Shown here in pieces: positions 1 to 7,354 of a stretch of 7,354 bases of DNA. The translations under genes and the position numbers were made by a program. The stretch lies in IMG/VR virus record IMGVR_UViG_2609459834_000007; one strand, written 5' to 3'. Numbering within the stretch: the stretch's first letter is position 1; every line of letters starts with the position of its first letter. A model generated the notes under the pieces. It ran no database searches. It was given only the letters and a program-made list of their open reading frames with translations, and had not been told where the DNA came from. This DNA is from a virus (lineage: Duplodnaviria; Heunggongvirae; Uroviricota; Caudoviricetes).

Positions 1-236
1 AAAACGATAACCAACTGGCGATGTTATTCACGCTGGCCAACCTGTTTCGGGCGGACCAAATGATACGTCAGTGGGAGAGATCTCACTAAAAACTGGGGAT
101 AACGCCTTAAATGGCGAAGAAACGGTCTAAATAGGCTGATTCAAGGCATTTACGGGAGAAAAAATCGGCTCAAACATGAAGAAATGAAATGACTGAGTCA
201 GCCGAGAAGAATTTCCCCGCTTATTCGCACCTTCCC

Positions 237-296
237 TGGTGCTTTATGCCTGTGAAGTTTATAATTGTGTACACATAACGAGTACACGAGGTGTTT
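237..296 (+). promoter_or_regulatory. phd-doc promoter/operator region: TATAAT -10-like hexamer followed by two Phd-type palindromic sites
   Basis: TATAAT at 260-265; perfect 10-bp palindrome TGTGTACACA at 266-275 and a related GAGTACAC at 280-287, directly upstream of the phd SD (GAGG ~288-291) and ATG at 297. The phd-doc operon is known to be autoregulated by Phd binding adjacent palindromes over the promoter; the -35 is not obvious. Confidence 0.5.
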
Positions 297-518
297 ATGC
301 AATCCATTAACTTCCGTACCGCGCGTGGCAACCTTTCTGAAGTGCTCAACAATGTTGAAGCCGGGGAAGAGGTTGAAATCACCCGCAGAGGCCGTGAGCC
401 AGCAGTAATTGTCAGCAAGGCTACTTTCGAAGCCTACAAAAAAGCGGCGCTGGATGCTGAATTTGCATCCCTGTTTGACACCCTGGACTCCACCAACAAG
501 GAACTGGTTAACCGATAA
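297..518 (+). CDS. phd: Phd antitoxin (prevent-host-death), 73 aa
   Basis: ORF translation [73 protein letters not shown] matches P1 Phd as I recall it. The track's GTG at 291 lies inside the SD, so ATG 297 is preferred. Stop TAA (516-518) overlaps the doc ATG (518-520). Confidence 0.95.
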
Positions 519-898
519 TGAGGCATATATCACCGGAAGAACTTATTGCGCTTCATGATGCGAATATAAACCGCTACGGCGGCCTGCCAGGCATGTCAGA
601 TCCGGGTAGGGCAGAGGCCATTATCGGGAGAGTTCAGGCCAGAGTTGCCTACGAAGAGATCACCGACCTTTTCGAAGTCTCCGCCACCTACCTGGTGGCT
701 ACGGCGAGAGGGCATATATTCAATGATGCCAATAAGCGTACCGCGCTAAACAGTGCGCTGTTATTTCTACGCCGTAACGGGGTGCAGGTATTTGATTCAC
801 CTGAACTGGCAGACCTTACTGTAGGCGCTGCGACTGGCGAGATATCTGTATCTTCTGTCGCCGACACGTTACGTAGATTGTATGGTTCTGCGGAGTAG
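518..898 (+). CDS. doc: Doc toxin (death on curing; Fic-fold kinase), 126 aa
   Basis: 126-aa [38 protein letters not shown]... matches P1 Doc in sequence and length as I recall it; start overlaps the phd stop (TAATG), the classic toxin-antitoxin coupling. Confidence 0.95.
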
Positions 899-902
899 AT
901 TA

Positions 903-1082
903 ATGGCACGCAAATACAACAAATTGTCCCGTGAAGCGTTAAAGATGCTTCTTGATGGCGTGAGTCGCCGCGAGGTAAAGCAATACCTGGTTGGTAAGCA
1001 AATTGGAGCCAGGACTGCTATTGCTGTGTTATGCCGTCAGGAAATGGTTGTGCTTAAACAGAGAATGCCGGGCAGCAGATAA
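903..1082 (+). CDS. small hypothetical protein, 59 aa; by position possibly the post-doc gene PdcA of P1
   Basis: ATG at 903 preceded by GGAG (892-895) with a 7-nt spacer, 4 nt after the doc stop. The track ORF 882..1082 is the same frame starting inside doc; the SD-supported 903 start is preferred. Basic protein, no domain recognised; synteny with the P1 order doc-pdcA-pdcB-lpa is from memory. Confidence 0.55.
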   Translation: MARKYNKLSREALKMLLDGVSRREVKQYLVGKQIGARTAIAVLCRQEMVVLKQRMPGSR

Positions 1083-1109
1083 AGCCCAATCAGTGATGAA
1101 AGGTGTGAT

Positions 1110-2153
1110 GTGAAAGCCGTAATTACTCCCTTTGTACAAAAAGAGCTTGGCGTCGCCACATTCAAAGTGGATCAGGAAGTCAGAAAGCTGGTGGAGGCTG
1201 GCCGTAAATTTATTATGGAGCCGGTGCCGCGTGAGTTAATCGAGCACATGGACGACGGCCTCGTTGTTTCCGAGCAAACTATGGCAACAAATGAGGCGTT
1301 GCAGCCGTTTTTTAACAGCGATGAACTGTTTCGCCGTATTGGTGGAATTGACGCGCTGGTGGCGTGGTTGCGCAGGAAAGAGGGGCAATGCCAGGCCGCA
1401 GATCGTAGCTGCTGTGACAACCATATTGTCCACGCAGAACGAGACAATAGCGCGGTGTTGTTGTGCTGGCATCACGATAACCATTACCGGATGCGTGGTT
1501 TTAATGAGCTGAAAGAAACGCTGCATAATAATCGCGTTAACTGGATACTGGATGTCGCCCGTCAGGAAATGGGGCTTTCAGATGGCCATGATTTAAGTAT
1601 TCAGGAACTGTGCTGGTGGGCTTTCATGCGCAACATGATGCACCTGATGCCGGAAGAAGTTTGCCGTATATCAATAAATAAGATGAAAGCCGCAACGCAG
1701 GATAGCGGACCTCTGAAAGAGGCGGATATTCGCCCGTATGACGATCGCGCTACAGCATATGTTCAGATGATGGAAGAACGCGCCGCGCCGATGCGTGCAA
1801 AAGTATGCCCTGTGGATGTTGACTCCGACCCTGGCATGGCGCATTTCAAAATACCAAAACTGCAATCGCTAAAATTACCTGAGTACATGGACTTTGTTGC
1901 TTCCCGTCCATGCTGTGGGTGTGGAGCGGCGGGAGCTGGCGCTCACATTACGCCTTATATCGTTCGTCATAGTCGATTATGCGCGCATGACATTTACGCA
2001 ATTCCTCTGTGCCAGTCATGCCAGCGTGATATTGAGCGTGACCGCGATAATTGGGAGAAGACGCACGGTAGGCTGGCGATGCATCAACGATTGTTCTTTG
2101 ATTACGCGCTTGGAGTCGGCGCTATCACAAGTCACTCGTCGAGCGTTAGATAA
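1110..2153 (+). CDS. hypothetical Cys/His-rich protein, 347 aa; by position possibly PdcB of P1
   Basis: Long ORF with GTG start at 1110 preceded by AAAGG (1099-1103). Contains two Cys/His clusters (CCDNHIVH...LLCWHHDNH and [37 protein letters not shown]) resembling degenerate HNH / zinc-finger motifs. Function unknown. Confidence 0.75.
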
Positions 2154-2154
2154 A

Positions 2155-2171
2155 ATTGCTCTAATGTATTG
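2155..2171 (+). promoter_or_regulatory. C1 repressor operator-like site upstream of lpa
   Basis: ATTGCTCTAATGTATTG matches the asymmetric 17-bp P1 C1 operator consensus ATTGCTCTAATAAATTT at 14/17, with the 5' 11 bp exact. It lies immediately after the stop of the 347-aa ORF and upstream of lpa, which in P1 is C1-controlled. Confidence 0.6.
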
Positions 2172-2184
2172 CTATTTCTTTAAT
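2156..2184 (+). promoter_or_regulatory. candidate sigma70 promoter for lpa overlapping the C1 operator
   Basis: -35-like TTGCTC (2156-2161), 17-bp spacer, -10-like TTTAAT (2179-2184). Weak match, but the geometry fits an operator-occluded promoter. Confidence 0.3.
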
Positions 2185-2205
2185 CGAGGGTGTTATATTC
2201 CACGT

Positions 2206-2229
2206 TGATTAGTTGACATGGGCTAATCA
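2206..2229 (+). repeat. inverted repeat TGATTAG-N10-CTAATCA in the lpa leader, spacer containing TTGACATGG
   Basis: 7-bp perfect inverted arms (2206-2212 and 2223-2229) about 13 nt upstream of the lpa start codon; could be a protein-binding site or an RNA hairpin in the 5' UTR. Confidence 0.4.
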
Positions 2230-2241
2230 GTAGGTGACAGG

Positions 2242-2694
2242 ATGTTACTTAACTGGCAGGGACGCCACTTCATGGAAATAAATCACTCACGAATAACATC
2301 GTACGAGATTGCGGATTACATGATCCGCACTAAATCTCTTCTATCAGCGAAAGAACTCGCAGCAATTCTTGAAAAGGAATACCCGCATCTGGATGTCGAT
2401 AAGCGCGATGTTTATCTGCGCTTAAAGGCTATCGCTGTGTCTAAGTATTCGTCTGTTTTGATTGATGACAGTACACGCCCACGTAGATTTCAGATCCACT
2501 CTCTGAATCCTGAATTCTTTCGCCGTAGCCGCGCTCCGCGCCGGTTTGATGAAAAACTCCAGAACGAACTCTATATGACGCAGGACGAAAAGGAACGCCG
2601 GGAGCACCAGCCTTGGGTAATGGCGCGTCAACTTTTCAATAAGGTGGCCCGTCAGCACCGTCATTACGGTAATGCCACATCCGCACGTATCTGA
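2242..2694 (+). CDS. lpa: late promoter activator Lpa (P1 gene 10)-like protein, 150 aa
   Basis: ORF of the expected size sitting between a C1 operator and pacA, as in P1. The start is uncertain: ATG 2242 or in-frame ATG 2272 (MEINHSRITSY...), both with weak SDs. Confidence 0.7.
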   Translation: MLLNWQGRHFMEINHSRITSYEIADYMIRTKSLLSAKELAAILEKEYPHLDVDKRDVYLRLKAIAVSKYSSVLIDDSTRPRRFQIHSLNPEFFRRSRAPRRFDEKLQNELYMTQDEKERREHQPWVMARQLFNKVARQHRHYGNATSARI

Positions 2695-2704
2695 TTGATT
2701 GCTT

Positions 2705-2723
2705 GCCCGTTCCGGGCCTTTTG
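2705..2723 (+). terminator. possible weak intrinsic terminator after lpa
   Basis: GC stem GCCCG/CGGGC (2705-2709 / 2713-2717) with loop TTC, followed by CTTTTG. The stem is short, so at most a partial terminator. Confidence 0.3.
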
Positions 2724-2779
2724 ACATGTGACTTTCGTTACCCTCGCGTCAAAAAGAGTTTTTACGAAAGGAAGCATAA

Positions 2780-3973
2780 GTGACCTGGGACGATCACAAG
2801 AAGAATTTTGCTCGCCTGGCGCGAGATGGTGGTTACACCATCGCACAGTATGCCGCCGAGTTTAATCTTAACCCTAATACTGCACGTCGTTATCTCCGTG
2901 CCTTCAAAGAAGACACCAGGACAGCGGACAGCCGCAAGCCAAATAAGCCAGTCAGGAAGCCACTAAAAAGCATGATCATTGATCACTCTAATGATCAACA
3001 TGCAGGTGATCACATTGCGGCTGAAATAGCGGAAAAACAAAGGGTTAATGCCGTTGTCAGTGCCGCAGTCGAGAATGCGAAGCGCCAAAATAAGCGCATA
3101 AATGATCGTTCTGATGATCATGACGTGATCACCCGCGCCCACCGGACCTTACGTGATCGCCTGGAACGCGACACCCTGGATGATGATGGTGAACGCTTTG
3201 AATTCGAAGCTGGCGATTACCTGATAGATAACGTTGAAGCGCGGAAGGCCGCGCGCGCTATGTTGCGTCGGTCCGGGGCCGATGTTCTGGAAACCACTCT
3301 TCTTGAAAAGTCTCTTTCTCATCTCCTTATGCTGGAGAACGCCAGGGATACGTGTATTCGCCTGGTGCAGGAAATGCGCGATCAGCAAAAAGACGATGAT
3401 GAAGGTACTCCGCCTGAATACCGTATCGCGAGCATGCTAAACAGCTGTTCCGCGCAGATAAGCAGCCTGATCAACACCATTTACAGCATCCGGAATAACT
3501 ATCGAAAAGAAAGCCTGGAGGCGGAAAAGCACGCTTTGTCTATGGGGCAAGCTGGCATTGTTAAGCTGGCATACGAACGAAAGCGTGAAAATAACTGGTC
3601 AGTGCTGGAAGCAGCTGAATTCATCGAGGCGCATGGCGGGAAAGTGCCGCCCCTGATGCTGGAGCAAATCAAAGCCGATCTGCGTGCTCTTAAGACCAAT
3701 ACCGATGATGAGGAAAGGCAAACAGCCGTTGGTGGCCCTTCTCTTGAAGATCTGGACAAAGTTGCGCGAGAACGGGCCGCCAACCGCCGCGCCGATGCCG
3801 CATTGTGGATTGAGCAGCGTAGGGAAGAAATCGCCGATATCGTTGATACAGGCGGTTATGGAGATGTTGATACTGAAGGTGTATCAAACGACCCATGGCT
3901 GGAACAAGACCTGGACGAAGACGAGGAGGAAGACGAAGAAGTTACCCGCAAGCTATACGGGGATGATGATTAA
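2780..3973 (+). CDS. pacA: terminase small / pac-recognition subunit PacA, 397 aa
   Basis: GTG start at 2780 with SD AAGGAAG (2768-2774). N-terminal HTH-like region [39 protein letters not shown], acidic C-terminal tail, 397 aa as for P1 PacA. Contains the pac hexamer repeats. Stop TAA overlaps the pacB ATG (TAATG at 3971-3975). Confidence 0.95.
2973..3131 (+). other. pac packaging site: 4 + 3 TGATCA/G hexamer repeats (each with a Dam GATC) flanking the cleavage region
   Basis: TGATCA at 2973, 2980, 2992, 3007; then TGATCG at 3103 and TGATCA at 3115, 3126. This matches the known ~160-bp P1 pac architecture of four and three hexanucleotide elements flanking the cut sites inside pacA. Confidence 0.85.
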
Positions 3974-4827
3974 TGGCCAGAAGTTGCGTAACGGATCCAC
4001 GTTGGCGCGAGCTGGTGGCGCTATATCGTTATGACTGGATTGCGGCCGCTGATGTTTTGTTCGGCAAAACACCTACCTGGCAGCAGGATCTGATTATTGA
4101 GTCTGTGCAGGAACAGGGTAGCAAGACATCTGTTTCGTCTGGTCACGGTACCGGGAAATCAGACATGACTTCTATCATGATCATGTTGTTCATAATCATG
4201 TATCCCGGTGCCCGAGCCATTATCGTTGCGAACAAAATTCAGCAGGTAATGACCGGTATATTCAAGTACATCAAGATAAACTGGGCTACTGCCACCAGCC
4301 GTTTCCCATGGCTTGCTGATTATTTTGTTCTGACAGAAACCGCTTTCTATGAGGTTACTGGTAAAGGTGTATGGACTGTAGTACCGAAGGGCTTTCGTCT
4401 GGGAAGTGAAGAAGCTCTCGCCGGTGAACACGCAGATCATCTTCTGTATATTATCGATGAAGCCTCCGGTGTCAGTGATAGAGCTTTCGGTATCATCACC
4501 GGTGCTCTTACCGGACAGGATAACCGCATCTTATTACTGTCACAGCCTACACGCCCAAGCCAACGTCTAAGGAGGCTGCCAATATGGCTACTATCCCTAC
4601 CCCAACTCATCCTGAATTTATCTGCCGCTTTTACTCCTGCCAAAAACGTCACTATCACTTCGTTATTGCACCAACAGAAGATGAGGCCCGCTCTCAGCTT
4701 CCTGACGCCCCATGTATTTTCTCTGCCCGTTTTTCCACTGATTCACGCAATTCTCTCAGTTACTGGTGCCTCCCTGTTAACGCTTCTGCTCAGGAGGGAC
4801 TATGAGAACGTCATTAGTCACCCGTGA
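3973..4827 (+). CDS. pacB: terminase large subunit PacB-like ORF; only the N-terminal ATPase part (to ~nt 4560) looks terminase-like, the nuclease domain is absent (probable truncation or disruption)
   Basis: Walker [10 protein letters not shown], Walker [12 protein letters not shown] and motif [10 protein letters not shown] are present. After ...SQPTRPS (~4560) the frame reads low-complexity Leu/Pro/Ser-rich sequence to the stop at 4827 and overlaps SD-supported genes in other frames. A ~195-aa protein is too short for a functional large terminase (P1 PacB is ~490 aa from memory). Confidence 0.6.
4584..4805 (+). CDS. icd: small ORF (73 aa) translationally coupled to the downstream antirepressor gene; architecture resembles P1 immI icd
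   Basis: Strong SD TAAGGAGG (4568-4575) 8 nt before ATG 4584; stop TGA overlaps the next ATG (ATGA at 4802-4805). Protein has Cys/His residues (CRFYSC, HYH). The DNA is pyrimidine-rich and carries anti-SD-like segments, so a leader role cannot be excluded. Identity as icd rests on architecture and size only. Confidence 0.45.
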
Positions 4828-5920
4828 AGAGATGATCGAGGCAATTGAACAGCACATTGCCTGTATCAGTACCAGGGATATACCAGGCGTTATTGCCAAC
4901 TACTTCATGATCACCAAACAACTTTACCGGAGAAAGGACAAGAACTCGGTTCACCGTATCCTGTTGTCTGATATCCGCGAATACCTGCTCGAACAGGGTC
5001 ATCTGAATTACGCAACCGTCGCAGCCGAAGCACGCAAGGAGGCACACAGAATGAAAGCAACTAACGTTAAATCAGAAAAAATTCATGCACCTTCAGTTCA
5101 GGAATCGGAGCTGGTGGTTGTTCAGAATCAGTCTGATGAAATTCCCGTTCTGGAATGGCAGGGAGCGCGTGTAGTGACAACCGAGACTCTTGCTAGAGGG
5201 TATGGGACAGAAACAATCCGTATTCGCCAAAATCATCATGAGAACAAAGTACGCTTTGTTGAAGGGAAGCACTTTTTCAAAGTTGAAGGAGAATCATTGC
5301 GCGAGTTGAAGCACAGAGTAGCTTTAAACTACTCTGTAAAAATTGCTCGCAATGTTCGCTCACTCACCCTCTGGACAGAACGCGGCGCAGCCCGCCACGC
5401 TAAAATGCTCGAAACCGATCAGGCATGGGCATTCTTTGAAAAACTGGAAGACAGCTACTTCCGACAAAAAGAACAGCAACCGGTCGCAATCCCCCAGACG
5501 ATTCCAGAAGCTCTGCGCCTGGCTGCCGAGTTAGCTGAACAAAAGCAACTTCTGGAACAGAAAGCCCACCAGCTAAATCAGCAGCTGGTGGCCGCCGCTT
5601 CTAAAGTCGATTTTGCCGACCGGGTATCAGTAGCTAAAGGGATCCTGATTGGGAATTTTGCAAAGGTCGTTGGACTTAAACAAAATGCGCTGTTTGCCTG
5701 GTTACGGGAGAACGGCATTCTGATAGCGTCCGGAGGCCGTAAAAATGTACCGTTCCAGCAGTACATCAACGCGGGGTATTTCACGGTGAAAGAAGTGGTG
5801 CTGGATGATGAAGATGGCTACCAGATACGGTTGACGCCTCAATTAACGGGTAAAGGCCAGCAGTGGTTGACGCGTAAACTGCTCGATGCTGGTTTGTTAA
5901 AACCGGTGGCGGCTGAATAA
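4802..5920 (+). CDS. ant1: antirepressor-like protein with ORF6N-type N-terminal domain and KilAC/ANT C-terminal domain, 372 aa (Ant1-like)
   Basis: Strong SD CAGGAGGG (4791-4798) before ATG 4802. Central motif [42 protein letters not shown] fits the ORF6N family; C-terminal ...[46 protein letters not shown] fits the phage antirepressor KilAC domain. Predicted ~42 kDa, matching the reported size of P1 Ant1. Confidence 0.8.
5051..5920 (+). CDS. ant2: possible shorter in-frame isoform (Ant2-like, 289 aa) from an internal start
   Basis: In-frame ATG at 5051 (Met84 of the long ORF) preceded by a consensus SD AAGGAGG (5036-5042) with an 8-nt spacer. Predicted ~32 kDa, matching the Ant1/Ant2 pair (42 and 32 kDa) reported for P1 immI. 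Confidence 0.45.
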   Translation: MKATNVKSEKIHAPSVQESELVVVQNQSDEIPVLEWQGARVVTTETLARGYGTETIRIRQNHHENKVRFVEGKHFFKVEGESLRELKHRVALNYSVKIARNVRSLTLWTERGAARHAKMLETDQAWAFFEKLEDSYFRQKEQQPVAIPQTIPEALRLAAELAEQKQLLEQKAHQLNQQLVAAASKVDFADRVSVAKGILIGNFAKVVGLKQNALFAWLRENGILIASGGRKNVPFQQYINAGYFTVKEVVLDDEDGYQIRLTPQLTGKGQQWLTRKLLDAGLLKPVAAE

Positions 5921-5927
5921 TGGAAGA

Positions 5928-5949
5928 ATGCCCGGTTGATGCCGGGCAT
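5928..5949. terminator. bidirectional intrinsic terminator between the convergent antirepressor gene and c1
   Basis: Perfect 8-bp GC-rich stem ATGCCCGG / CCGGGCAT (5928-5935 / 5942-5949) with loop TTGATG, followed by AATTTATT on the + strand and a T-rich stretch on the - strand. It lies 8 nt after the ant stop and 3 nt before the c1 stop. Confidence 0.6.
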
Positions 5950-5952
5950 AAT

Positions 5953-6804
5953 TTATTGCGCGCTTTCGGGGTTGTCGTTTACTGGCTGCCCCTTCTTGGT
6001 TTTACGGCTGCGCGTAACTGATGCGGCTGACTTAACCTTTTTCTCTTCGCGAGTGATGGCAATTTGTTTTTTTACATTTTCAATATCTGCCAGGCGATAT
6101 ATTTTTGCTTGCGGCCAGCGGCCGCAGATGATCGGTTCTATGGAGTCATAAAGGCTAAATTTTGCTTTTTCGAATTCACCGTTGATGATAATTCCATCAC
6201 GGAGAGTTTCATCGCAGATAAACACGCCACACAGTGGCACATGGTAACTAACTGATTTACCATCATTGTAGTTAGGGCTACTGGAAATGTAGTGGACGCG
6301 CAGCATTGTTTCGCTAAAGCCGTGTACGCGCATACGGAATTTTTCATCCTCCGGGTACTGCTTCATTAGCTCTTTTGTTGCTTCCAGGTTCTCTATGTAT
6401 TTCGCACTGTGCTCATTGATCCCCGCGCTTTTTTGGATGCGAATGTCCTTATCAATCAGATGAATAATGCGGCCAGCGGTCATGTTGACGCTGTTCACAG
6501 CTTCTGTCTGATAAGTTGTAACCTTACGCACACCGCGAAGGATGTTAGGCACTGGATATAAAATAGTCTTTGGGATATTGAGGTCTGGGTACTGTTCCAG
6601 TTCCCGCGCCATTAAAGTCCATTTATCAATTTCAGCCTGAATGCTGTCAGTTTCTTTGAACGGTAGAACGACAACCGGGCGTACAGGACGACCGTCGCTG
6701 GCTGTATCAACGTGTTGGGCGCGTGCAACAGCTTTTTTTAGAAAGAGATCCCTGAAGCTGACGAACTCCTGGTACAGTTGTTCGCCGTAGACATAATTTA
6801 TCAT
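5953..6804 (-). CDS. c1: C1 repressor of lysogeny (P1 immC), 283 aa
   Basis: 283-aa ORF MINYVYGEQLYQEFVSFRDLFLKKAVARAQHVD... matches P1 C1 in sequence and length as I recall it. Strong SD GGAGGAGG (reverse complement of 6809-6816) before the ATG at 6804. Confidence 0.95.
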   Translation of the reverse strand: MINYVYGEQLYQEFVSFRDLFLKKAVARAQHVDTASDGRPVRPVVVLPFKETDSIQAEIDKWTLMARELEQYPDLNIPKTILYPVPNILRGVRKVTTYQTEAVNSVNMTAGRIIHLIDKDIRIQKSAGINEHSAKYIENLEATKELMKQYPEDEKFRMRVHGFSETMLRVHYISSSPNYNDGKSVSYHVPLCGVFICDETLRDGIIINGEFEKAKFSLYDSIEPIICGRWPQAKIYRLADIENVKKQIAITREEKKVKSAASVTRSRKTKKGQPVNDNPESAQ

Positions 6805-6819
6805 TGATCCTCCTCCAGA

Positions 6820-6834
6820 ATTGACATGGTCAAT
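6820..6834. repeat. inverted repeat ATTGAC-ATG-GTCAAT just 5' of the c1 ribosome-binding site
   Basis: 6-bp perfect inverted arms around a 3-bp centre, 3 nt beyond the c1 SD (6809-6816) on the c1 leader side. Contains TTGACATGG, which also occurs at 2213-2221. Confidence 0.4.
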
Positions 6835-6898
6835 AACGCCCGGCTGAGAAAACCGGTCATTACTGACCTATATTATAGAGGGATCAAACGAAAATAAT

Positions 6899-6915
6899 AG
6901 ATTTATTAGTGCATT
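6899..6915 (-). promoter_or_regulatory. C1 operator-like site in the coi-c1 intergenic region (Op99-type)
   Basis: + strand AGATTTATTAGTGCATT is the reverse complement orientation of the C1 consensus (AAATTTATTAGAGCAAT), 14/17 matches. It sits at the 3' end of coi, upstream of c1, consistent with C1 autoregulation. Confidence 0.5.
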
Positions 6916-7124
6916 TATTGTGAGTCTAACTGGTTAGTTGCCATGAGATATTCGATTGTGTCAGTGAGGTCATCCAGGTCGTCTTGGGTGATGCGGTACT
7001 CCTGATTGGATATCTTTGAGTAGTGTTCAGCAATGGCGCGGGCTGCGTCGGTTTCGGCAGGGTCTACAGATAAAGCGTTAGAGCAATGTCTAACGTCGTC
7101 GATGGTTGGTTGAATGAAAGCCAT
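6915..7124 (-). CDS. coi: Coi, C1 inactivator, 69 aa
   Basis: 69-aa ORF MAFIQPTIDDVRHCSNALSVDPAETDAARAIAEHYSKISNQEYRITQDDLDDLTDTIEYLMATNQLDSQ immediately upstream of c1 on the same strand; size and position match P1 coi. SD GAGG upstream on the - strand. Confidence 0.9.
   Translation of the reverse strand: MAFIQPTIDDVRHCSNALSVDPAETDAARAIAEHYSKISNQEYRITQDDLDDLTDTIEYLMATNQLDSQ
7071..7087 (-). promoter_or_regulatory. weaker C1 operator-like half-match inside the coi coding region
   Basis: - strand reads ATTGCTCTAACGCTTTA: the conserved ATTGCTCTAA half is exact (10/10), the AT-rich half diverges (12/17 overall). Confidence 0.3.
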
Positions 7125-7203
7125 AATTATGCCTCACTGTATTGACAACACAGAGCCTGAAGCTCTGACCTACTGTTTCACCCATGATCCATGCTGGGGT
7201 AAT

Positions 7204-7354
7204 CTAACAACGTTGCGCTGTGTGTAAGATGAGCAATGCATAGGGAAGGTGCGAACAAGTTCCTGATATGAGATCATCATATTCATCCGGAGCGCATCCC
7301 AGAGGGACATCATGAGCCATCAACTCACCTTCGCCGATAGTGAATTCAGCACTA
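7204..7354 (-). CDS. partial ORF (3' end; start lies beyond the right window edge), possibly an imcB-like immC ORF
   Basis: The - strand frame is open from the window edge to a TAG at 7204-7206 (...SAEFTIGEGELMAHDVPLGCAPDEYDDLISGTCSHLPYALLILHTAQRC*). No domain recognised; the positional guess is from memory of P1 immC (coi preceded by imcB/imcA). Confidence 0.3.
   Translation of the reverse strand, partial: SAEFTIGEGELMAHDVPLGCAPDEYDDLISGTCSHLPYALLILHTAQRC

Follow-up and report, generated by a model that had tools for sequence, protein, structure and literature searches.

A private 1,212-bp deletion joins truncated pacB to the second icd-ant module in a probably defective P1-like fragment

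The antirepressor cassette found behind the terminase gene pacB in the analyzed 7,354-nt stretch of viral DNA (hereafter the window) is, judging from sequence comparison, the second, pacB-proximal icd-ant module that is standard in RCS47-type phage-plasmids, and the window represents the decay of a known system and no new arrangement. As an explanation of the whole, we consider it very probable that a 1,212-bp deletion in this known module left a defective and mostly silent remnant, bounded by insertion sequences, in which icd and ant were kept.

The order pacA, full-length pacB (494 aa), control region, icd, ant and c1 constitutes the ordinary interval in RCS47, JL22, vB_EcoM-673R5 and pDC71-1, and the same interval is carried by at least 237 PLSDB plasmids, counting those that cover at least 80% of it. 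Venturini et al. (2019) likewise described ant as inserted in the pacB-c1 interval "as in RCS47". The preliminary description of the window had considered this an unexpected place for an icd-ant cassette, a view that does not hold and is largely refuted by these relatives with their full-length PacB; its statement that the P1 module lies at another locus, followed by kilA-repL, is correct for P1. The relatives with the pacB-proximal module also retain the canonical immI, the ant of which is a different gene (344–347 aa). Compared to P1 Ant1, the Ant of the window is a mosaic with its middle part replaced by ORF6N, and a transfer of icd-ant into pacB by recombination, whether from canonical immI or from some other prophage, could thus be envisaged. 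Such an origin is very improbable, given that hundreds of plasmids have the same mosaic ant (98.9% identical) at the same site, 3' of an intact pacB, and that the canonical immI ant differs from it. An insertion of icd-ant into pacB was moreover ruled out by colinear alignment with the intact interval of the RCS47-type relative L002, where window positions 900–4560 correspond to L002 1–3661 and 4560–7243 to L002 4873–7556, the missing stretch being positions 3662–4872 of L002. The suggested cargo swap by recombination is in fact a simple internal deletion of the ordinary interval.

The deletion took pacB codons 197–494, i.e. 298 C-terminal codons or 60% of the gene, and only residues 1–196 of the encoded protein are native in the window. 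A PHROG profile for the terminase large subunit, used to define how much of the terminase is kept, matched residues 33–195 in the truncated protein (PacB') as compared to residues 33–474 in intact PacB; a PDB sequence search with PacB gave nothing significant (E ~0.8). PacB' is presumably unable to support packaging, which would make the element a defective remnant. As initially described, the cassette directly follows pacB coding sequence: PacB homology stops at 4560, after codon 196, which is now joined 3 nt upstream of the C4 target b2 and the icd Shine-Dalgarno (SD) sequence. The reading frame continues beyond the junction across the icd SD and the entire icd and stops at TGA 4825–4827, 25 nt beyond the ant ATG, and annotators should therefore be aware that the resulting 284-aa "protein" is an out-of-frame PacB' fusion. 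All other ORFs in the window are intact (Table 1).

Table 1 Features of the window, with positions counted from its first nucleotide.
Feature	Position	Strand	Remarks
IS5 3' end	1–234	+	Terminal inverted repeat CTTATTCGCACCTTCC at 219–234; left boundary of P1-like segment
Pphd	237–265	+	Projection of P1 features
phd (addiction module)	297–518	+	ORF; Pfam PhdYeFM on same gene in carriers L006–L010
doc (addiction module)	518–898	+	ORF; Pfam Fic on same gene in carriers L006–L010
Olpa (Op94), C1 operator	2155–2171	+	Identical to P1; projection and consensus scan
Plpa, C1-repressed promoter of lpa	2169–2196	+	Overlaps Olpa; P1 annotation projected
lpa, late-promoter activator	2242–2694	+	ORF; annotated lpa in RCS47 and pDC71-1
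LPpac, Lpa-dependent late promoter of pac operon	2726–2744	+	-22 box and -10 identical to P1
pacA	2780–3973	+	397 aa, intact; lineage-private R246L, P304L
pacB' (terminase large subunit)	3973–4560	+	Codons 1–196; protein identical to intact PacB
Deletion junction	4560–4561		1,212 bp gone relative to RCS47-type relatives; 1 nt (C) microhomology
Out-of-frame tail of pacB' fusion ORF	4561–4827	+	88 codons; fusion 284 aa in total
C4 target b2, CGTCTAAGG	4564–4572	+	Overlaps icd SD; loop/target complementarity and covariation
icd homologue	4584–4805	+	73 aa, 8.3 kDa; W14C is TGC 4623–4625
ant	4802–5920	+	372 aa, 42.4 kDa; Ant1-like N-terminus, ORF6N middle, KilAC C-terminus
Terminator-like hairpin	5928–5949		Common to convergent ant and c1; 9 pairs, 6 G-C
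c1 repressor	5953–6804	-	283 aa, intact; lineage-private D228G
Pc1 -10	6872–6877	-	P1 projection
Operator Oc1ab	6888–6915	-	P1 projection
coi	6915–7124	-	ORF and P1 projection
Operator Oc1c	7071–7087	-	P1 projection
ISKpn26-like IS5-family 5' end	7244–7354	+	Inverted repeat GGAAGGTGCGAACAAG; transposase start MSHQLTFADSEFS; right boundary

Exact-protein look-up in ENA, Logan, NCBI and IMG revealed the identical 284-aa fusion ORF on 16 independent contigs of varied assembly and project origin (SPAdes, MEGAHIT, Logan, NCBI WGS, IMG), and the assembly chimerism at the junction that had been feared is excluded by these contigs. A misjoin of two loci could be argued from the shortness of the carrier contigs (all 7–19 kb, ending in IS copies) and from the absence of the junction from the 72,556 plasmids and 5,426 complete E. 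coli genomes searched, but is extremely improbable also in view of the colinearity of both junction sides with one parental interval and of the private coding alleles, 12 of the 13 checked being common to the carriers (the exception, at position 589, is found in the window only). The left IS5 junction was likewise absent from the 72,556 plasmids, and the exact junction 26-mer had one match in IMG/VR and none among GTDB species representatives or JGI metagenome contigs.

The 7-kb P1 segment, in which P1 homology begins at position 236, is bracketed by IS5 and ISKpn26, and the full IS5 copy in carriers L006 and L007 shares 99.7% identity with that of P1. The ISKpn26-like element cuts off imcA, Oc1d and P1coi; RCS47 has an insertion at the same place. 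The flank of L007 is Citrobacter chromosomal DNA, and the chromosome-IS5-P1 join, where a target-site duplication is missing, could reflect an assembler path through the repeat. A Citrobacter isolate (GCA_000704645.1 / JNRK01000040) is among the carriers. In L006 the flank is mosaic IncF-like DNA and P1 DNA (cra-cre-c8-ref) resumes past ISKpn26. The remaining P1-like genome, including the canonical immI, could reside on other contigs of the carriers; canonical c4 was found on 79 IMG/VR contigs and on none from the window's own IMG genome (2609459791), a weak negative given that IMG/VR holds viral-looking contigs only. The window segment is probably an IS-bounded, defective phage fragment.

The two genes of the cassette were compared to profile databases. 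The icd SD, TAAGGAGG at 4568–4575, is separated by the 8-nt spacer CTGCCAAT from the ATG at 4584, and the product shares 79% identity with P1 Icd and matched NCBIfam phage_ICD_like (E 1e-10, 41 bits, cutoff 25) and, over its full length, phrog_1426 (E 2e-43). The icd stop and ant start overlap in ATGA at 4802–4805. In Ant, the Pfam domains ORF6N (PF10543; residues 116–202, E 2e-19, 70.1 bits) and ANT/KilAC (PF03374; residues 260–361, E 1e-30, 106.5 bits) both scored above their gathering cutoffs (27.8 and 25.3, respectively), and the protein matched phrog_63, "anti-repressor Ant" (E 4e-129). As the E-values are very small, both genes are homologues and not chance ORFs. An internal in-frame start in ant (AAGGAGG at 5036–5042, eight nucleotides, ATG at 5051) falls at codon 84 within the motif RKEAHRM, aligns with the P1 Ant2 start, and would, as predicted from sequence, yield a 289-aa Ant2-like isoform of 32.7 kDa. 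The initial reading of the cassette is thus borne out: the TAAGGAGG-N8-ATG start of a 73-aa ORF, the ATGA overlap, the 372-aa ORF6N and KilAC protein and the terminator were all recovered at the positions first assigned, an internal isoform of about 32 kDa is predicted, and the assignment to the immI-type icd-ant is supported by the identity of Icd to its P1 counterpart, the overlap and the Ant2-position start. The identity to P1 Ant1 (55% overall, ~93% in the C-terminal part) suggests that Ant may inactivate C1 by binding. The adjoining c1, convergent to ant, gave an NCBIfam C1 equivalog match of 608 bits.

Intact relatives have a 340-bp control region between pacB and icd, comprising a C1-operator-like site, an isrK-like RNA and a C4 antisense RNA. 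Together with the 3' part of pacB, the deletion removed the Oc4-like operator, the promoter region, the isrK-like RNA and its terminator, c4 and the target a2, and spared the target b2 with the SD, icd and ant. The Oc4-like operator TTTGCTCTAATAAATTG lies directly after the pacB stop in relatives (L002 4562–4578) and is missing from the window, where an operator consensus scan returned only Olpa and Oc1a. Rfam C4 (RF01695) scored 75–76 bits in the intact relatives L001 and L002 and 69 bits in canonical P1 and pDC71-1, and in the control-region gap of relatives C4 scored 75.9 bits and isrK 60.8 bits. Searches of the window for C4, isrK and c4-a1b1 RNAs gave no Rfam match at the gathering threshold, nor with the cutoff relaxed to E ≤ 10. 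The claim that the cassette has neither c4 nor a promoter of its own is therefore upheld, with the operator and promoter region falling inside the deletion. Scanning the junction and its surroundings for promoters returned 6 sites, where 4.7 ± 2.2 would be expected, and hence no new promoter above chance.

Whole-molecule C4-leader duplex energies were uninformative, as C4's own helices were unfolded, and were replaced by a loop-versus-target helix search and a covariation count. Across five module types and 43 loci, C4 loops covaried with their targets: 98% of cells paired, as compared to 27–49% in slid controls, and the observed values were attained in 0 of 500 shuffles. The deleted c4 was thus a member of a functional regulator family. 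The b2/SD allele of the window is of the commonest type (type 0, 26/43 loci), and its partner a2 (TTGGTCT) is absent from the window. Between canonical P1/P7-type C4 RNAs and the surviving leader, no more than 6 contiguous pairs can form, and these RNAs could therefore not substitute in trans. Folding of the fused leader revealed no significant structure (z = -0.64), and the icd SD and start are not strongly sequestered. A weak a2-SD hairpin in the intact leader (z = -1.48) was not relied on.

We propose that one illegitimate deletion fused pacB codon 196 to the icd leader, after which transcription of icd-ant would depend entirely on read-through from promoters further upstream: Plpa, with C1 repression at Olpa; LPpac, which needs Lpa; and PpacB, a prediction of weak strength. 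Based only on the promoters and operators present, the cassette would probably be mostly silent at steady state and not constitutively on, since the adjoining c1 is intact. Any transcript made would be translated without C4 restraint, since polarity would be prevented by ribosomes crossing the icd start as they read the pacB' fusion ORF. The host would most likely be affected slightly or not at all, and the arrangement would be one stage in P1-like element decay.

The preliminary description had instead predicted that loss of c4 frees Ant, giving constitutive expression, inactivation of C1 and a derepressed or virulent-like immunity. The loss of c4 and a2, the lack of rescue by canonical C4 and the accessible icd start would fit such a phenotype, as would the requirement of C4 for full ant repression in P1 (PMC8198154). 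The module's own operator and promoter region are, however, also deleted, the remaining upstream promoters are C1-repressed or Lpa-dependent, and the destruction of pacB means that no virions would be made. With promoter and pacB lost as well and the segment bounded by IS elements, a virulent phenotype is unlikely. The allele is furthermore nearly unchanged (1–2 SNPs) in at least 16 assemblies with intact c1, a persistence that argues against a self-inducing element. We accordingly regard the prediction of derepressed immunity as improbable.

The lineage carries nine private amino-acid changes, classed as radical, comprising W14C in Icd and eight others in pdcB, pacA, ant and c1. Icd W14 is invariant in 107/107 copies outside the lineage, and C14 was found only in 7 deletion carriers. 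In P1, the toxic core of Icd comprises residues 12–51, and Icd lacking 11 N-terminal residues stays active while removal of 16 abolishes activity (PMC11897509); residue 14 falls inside this core. With icd and ant still open and overlapping, these data could point to a cassette that is expressed after the deletion, W14C being predicted to lower Icd toxicity and the icd frame being kept for coupling to ant in a selected, C4-independent Ant unit. This is unlikely, in that relaxed selection explains W14C equally well with nine private radical substitutions spread over several genes; the ratio of 9 nonsynonymous to 6 synonymous private substitutions, compared to 309:565 in relatives (p = 0.047), is a borderline signal of relaxed selection. 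A more elaborate variant, improbable in our view, is that the fragment is a selected mobile anti-immunity unit bracketed by IS5 and ISKpn26, with Icd detoxified by W14C and Ant made when the lpa/pac cascade fires. If so, it would constitute a C1-Ant positive-feedback switch that either derepresses co-resident or incoming RCS47-type prophages or tunes its own C1 immunity.

Under the preferred reading, what looks like an antirepressor within a terminase gene lacking c4 results from a deletion private to a P1-like fragment in decay, and a large lineage normally has icd-ant at the pacB-c1 site. The window nevertheless provides a natural c4-less and a2-less allele with Icd W14C, usable to test C4 dependence and Icd toxicity. 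RCS47-type elements as such appear to contain two complete and independent C4-controlled antirepressor circuits, the second with an isrK-like leader and at least five recombined, covarying a/b specificity "barcodes"; two C4/Ant circuits with recombining recognition loops would imply a second layer of heteroimmunity, a by-product that may interest P1 and phage-plasmid specialists more than the deletion itself.

In the c4 and vir-type immI mutants of P1, ant is deregulated while the immI promoters and a complete phage are kept. In the window, by contrast, promoters and terminase are lost, and virulence cannot be assumed. These laboratory mutants resemble the window in that C4 control of icd-ant is lost or bypassed (PMC8198154). 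In the isrK-orf45-anrP system of Gifsy-1 from Salmonella, an isrK-family RNA with a leaky Rho-independent terminator precedes a small ORF that overlaps, stop on start (AUGA), with an antirepressor-like gene, as in icd-ant, and the antirepressor is made only if the small ORF is translated (PMC4825925). This system has no C4 RNA and its 45-aa small ORF is not Icd, and the isrK-like element is found only in the intact relatives and not in the window. P1 immI is ordered Oc4/Op51, P51a/b, a1 b1, c4, a2 b2, icd and ant1/ant2, followed by kilA-repL, and shares with the window the 73-aa Icd, the ATGA, an Ant2 start at codon 84, a KilAC part of ~93% identity and b2 over the SD. It differs in locus, in its downstream kilA-repL and in the absence of ORF6N from the Ant centre, and the window lacks the operator, promoter and c4; the a1b1 leader of P1 immI corresponds to an isrK-like leader in the intact relatives, and C4 specificity also differs. 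The closest counterparts are the RCS47-type elements (RCS47, FO818745/NC_042128; pTZ20_1P; JL22; pDC71-1), which share genes, order and neighbours with the window and are 98–99% identical to it at the nucleotide level on either side of the junction, with the IS5/ISKpn26 bracketing noted on the window side only and the window set apart from them by its 1,212-bp deletion, Icd W14C and the other private changes.

The 7,354-bp window is a P1-like (Punavirus) segment, homologous to P1 (NC_005856) over positions 236–4556 and 5954–7243 (~95% identity in the alignment). The two ORFs, the Shine-Dalgarno sequence (SD), the ATGA overlap, the internal start, the terminator and the convergent c1 listed in the preliminary description are all present (see table), and the immI-type icd-ant identity it proposed holds: the 73-aa ORF encodes a homologue of Icd (79% identity to the P1 protein, with matches to NCBIfam phage_ICD_like and, over its full length, to PHROG), and the 372-aa ORF carries the Pfam domains ORF6N and ANT/KilAC. 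The window Ant shares 55% identity overall with P1 Ant1, and its internal Met falls at the exact aligned position of the P1 Ant2 start. The similarity is mosaic (window 4802–5920 compared to P1 ant1, L011 48688–49731), with residues 1–84 and about 231–372 being homologous, the C-terminus ~93% identical, and the central part consisting of an unrelated ORF6N domain, a pattern that reads as a domain swap with the Ant2 start preserved. The lack of c4 was likewise borne out by an Rfam search relaxed to E ≤ 10, which gave no hit to C4, isrK or c4-a1b1 RNA anywhere in the window. The start of pdcA is ambiguous (window 882–1082 or 903–1082), as the gene is annotated as a 66-aa form overlapping doc in P1 and as a 59-aa form in RefSeq plasmids; this has no bearing on the icd-ant finding.

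Features of the window and of the intact second icd-ant module, and changes private to the deletion lineage
Feature	Record	Position	Remarks
IS5, 3' end	window	1–234	left end and left bracket
Pphd, phd, doc, pdcA, pdcB, Olpa/Plpa, lpa, LPpac, pacA	window		in this order after IS5
pacB codons 1–196	window		after pacA; then icd, ant, terminator
b2	window	4564–4572	overlaps icd SD at 4568–4575
icd	window	4584–4805	73 aa; preceded by TAAGGAGG-N8-ATG
ant	window	4802–5920	372 aa; start overlaps icd stop as ATGA
internal ant start	window	codon 84	AAGGAGG-N8-ATG; predicted isoform 32.7 kDa
hairpin terminator	window	5928–5949	between ant and convergent c1
c1 and coi, with operators	window		minus strand, right of terminator
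IS5-family element, 5' end	window	7244–7354	right bracket
bracket, carrier contig	L007	5065–6265	
bracket, carrier contig	L006	567–1806	
pdcB W101C	window	1412	private, radical
pacA R246L, P304L	window	3516, 3690	private, radical
icd W14C	window	4623–4625	codon 14; private
ant T19I, A49S, V122A, P267S	window	4857, 4946, 5166, 5600	private, radical
c1 D228G	window	6122	private, radical
second-module control region	L002 (pDC71-1)	4562–4899	
second-module control region	L001 (RCS47)	4562–4920	
C1-operator-like (Oc4-like) site TTTGCTCTAATAAATTG	control region	directly after pacB stop	2 mismatches to 17-bp consensus
isrK-family RNA with Rho-independent terminator	control region	after operator	60.8 bits (gathering score 50)
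C4 antisense RNA	control region	after isrK-family RNA	75.9 bits (gathering score 45)
icd leader	control region	after C4 RNA	carries a2/b2

In P1 and P7, pacB and c1 are spaced by 24 bp and immI lies ~45 kb away, in the order Oc4, P51a/b, a1 b1, c4, a2 b2, icd, ant1/2, kilA, repL. The whole interval of the window from pacA through the truncated pacB (pacB'), icd and ant to c1 was matched at 93–99% identity by RCS47, JL22, vB_EcoM-673R5 and at least 237 PLSDB plasmids. The interval measures ~3.41 kb in these relatives as compared to 2.20 kb in the window, and is annotated there as pacA, full-length pacB (494 aa), a ~340-bp gap, an icd-like gene (73 aa), ant (372 aa) and convergent c1. An ant insertion between pacB and c1, as in RCS47, is already noted by Venturini et al. 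(PMC6906374), and the position once regarded as unexpected is thus the normal one in a widespread lineage. Relocation of immI to pacB was rejected, since the complete plasmid pDC71-1, which has the pacB-proximal module, also keeps a canonical immI (c4-a1b1 leader, C4, icd, 344-aa ant, kilA, repL); the pacB-proximal module is therefore a second copy. In the vB_EcoM-673R5 record (L003 1883–3074 and 6289–7112), pacA, ant and c1 are annotated in short pieces (Pac1/Pac2; c1 as three ORFs), which look like either frameshift errors or real pseudogenes.

Colinear alignment to the pDC71-1 locus (L002) placed window 900–4560 on 1–3661 and window 4560–7243 on 4873–7556, so that the two differ by one deletion of 1,212 bp, at whose junction a single base (C) is shared by both sides. 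Its left end directly follows pacB codon 196, and its right end lies 3 nt short of b2. PacB residues 197–494 are gone, as are operator, promoter region, c4, a2 and both the isrK-like RNA and its terminator; b2/SD, icd and ant survive together with the terminator downstream of ant. Beyond codon 196, the pacB' reading frame adds 88 out-of-frame codons that traverse the entire icd and end 25 nt beyond the ant ATG, resulting in a fusion ORF of 284 aa. Judging from this truncation, packaging function should be lost, because the PHROG terminase-large-subunit match, which spans residues 33–474 in intact PacB, covers only 33–195 in pacB'. Fusion of the cassette into pacB without c4 is thus genuine, but it reflects a private 1.2-kb deletion in a seemingly decaying, IS-bracketed P1-like fragment.

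The contiguous junction was absent from 535 matching plasmids and 512 matching complete E. coli genomes, and had no match in GTDB species representatives or JGI metagenome contigs. One IMG/VR contig, which belongs to isolate genome 2609459791, does carry it and is identical to window 297–7354 except for one base. An assembly artefact was excluded, as 16 contigs from several sources (ENA metagenome assemblies, Logan and NCBI GCA_000704645.1) encode exactly this fusion protein and differ from the window by 1–2 bases each. All carriers share a left IS5 (99.7% identical to P1 IS5) and a right ISKpn26-like element (~92% identical) in the same orientation, the latter at the position of an IS5-family insertion that RCS47 has as well; the left IS5-Pphd junction was found in no PLSDB plasmid. 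In contig L007, the left IS5 adjoins DNA whose lipoprotein gene has 100% protein and 90–93% DNA identity to Citrobacter braakii/pasteurii chromosomes, and has a CTAA target on its Citrobacter side with no matching duplication on the P1 side. The left flank of contig L006 is mosaic IncF-type plasmid DNA, with 39 bp more P1 sequence kept beside IS5, so the left junction differs between carriers; right of ISKpn26, P1 DNA (cra-cre-c8-ref) resumes up to a Tn3-family transposase. The segment accordingly sits in IS-rich, rearranged contexts, which suggests IS-mediated rearrangement or composite-transposon-like movement; as the carrier contigs are short, some carriers may still hold a whole P1-like genome.

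Sixteen alleles within 7 kb are private to the deletion lineage when it is compared to a panel of about 30 relatives. Its private coding changes comprise 9 nonsynonymous and 6 synonymous ones, as compared to 309:565 among the relatives' polymorphisms (one-sided Fisher p = 0.047), a weak sign of relaxed selection over the whole fragment. The radical substitutions in pdcB, pacA, ant and c1 affect positions that do not vary in some 30–45 relatives. Icd residue 14 is Trp in 107/107 other Icd copies examined, canonical and pacB-proximal, and Cys only in the seven deletion carriers; it falls within the toxic core of P1 Icd, mapped experimentally to residues 12–51 (PMC11897509). Selection following the loss of C4 could have favoured W14C as a detoxifying change, which if true would mean that the cassette is expressed, or W14C could equally be one more neutral change attributable to drift.

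RCS47-type phage-plasmids have, besides the canonical immI, a second complete C4-antirepressor circuit between pacB and c1. The 43 intact modules gathered by anchoring on the operator (loci among L172–L211) gave only five distinct C4-to-icd sequences, with three alleles each of the C4 loops and their targets in the icd leader: AGGCCAA/TTGGTCT, GTCTCAA/TTGAGAC and GTTCCAA/TTGGAAC for a'/a2, and CCTTGGACG/CGTCTAAGG, CCTTTGAC/GTCAAAGG and CCTTTTGC/GCAAAAGG for b'/b2. Every loop matched its own target in all five a/b combinations, with 98% of the cells pairing on the alignment as compared to 27–49% with the partner columns slid. Both sides had changed in 4/7 a'/a2 and 3/9 b'/b2 pairs, values reached by 0/500 shuffles, the count being based on five distinct rows with the structure drawn from one of them. 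Read from these alignments, the second module works as a circuit under C4 control that has specificities of its own, none of which is complementary to canonical P1/P7-type C4 loops. No paper describing the RNA part of this circuit was found in the literature searched. In the MFE fold of the intact leader (L002 4843–4900), GGUCUCUU in the a2 region and AAGGAGGC in the SD region base-pair with each other at a z of only -1.48; the leader may thus have a hairpin of its own that sequesters the SD and would be altered by C4 binding or by the deletion. One locus (L187, IMGVR_UViG_2698536372_000019) has two Oc4-like operator 26-mers 1.57 kb apart (1209–1234 and 2775–2800), which may stem from a duplication or from rearrangement of the second module.

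The cassette in the window has lost every dedicated regulator, from the operator, promoter region and isrK-like leader to C4 and a2, and a consensus scan found no promoter above chance near the junction. The only P1-conserved promoter features upstream are Pphd, Plpa with the C1 operator Olpa, LPpac and a weak predicted PpacB, where Olpa and the boxes of the Lpa-dependent late promoter LPpac are identical to P1. We infer that icd-ant now lies at the distal end of the lpa/pac transcription units and would be largely silent, because the intact c1 nearby would keep Plpa repressed, leaving no Lpa and LPpac off; control would then have changed from dual C1 and C4 to indirect C1, and not been released. 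If these promoters fire, icd-ant translation would be unrestrained, because canonical C4 RNAs can pair with at most 6 nt of the surviving leader, the icd SD has no significant structure in the fused leader, and ribosomes translating the fusion ORF would cover the icd start region; firing could also give C1-Ant positive feedback. No phage would arise from the window DNA alone, as pacB is destroyed, and the virulent-like phenotype predicted in the preliminary description is unlikely, since promoter and terminase were lost together with c4.

The cassette probably arose by deletion from the standard second immI module and lies in an element that is defective and bounded by IS copies; any particular expression state is proposed with much less confidence. 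Two features are of greater interest than the deletion: the organisation of C4/Ant control in RCS47-type elements as two circuits, with specificity loops that recombine and covary, and the lineage-specific Icd W14C.

Among known systems, the closest is the RCS47-type pacB-c1 module, of which the window cassette is a degenerate variant, set apart by the deletion and a small number of substitutions. The coding part resembles P1 immI (Icd, ATGA coupling, Ant1/Ant2), whereas c4, operator and promoter are absent and only half of the target remains. Laboratory P1 c4/vir mutants are a functional analogue of the C4 loss, but retain their own promoters and a complete phage. The intact relatives share with the isrK-orf45-anrP operon of Gifsy-1, the leader of which has a leaky terminator (PMC4825925), an isrK-family leader preceding a small ORF coupled to an antirepressor, to which the relatives add the C4 RNA.
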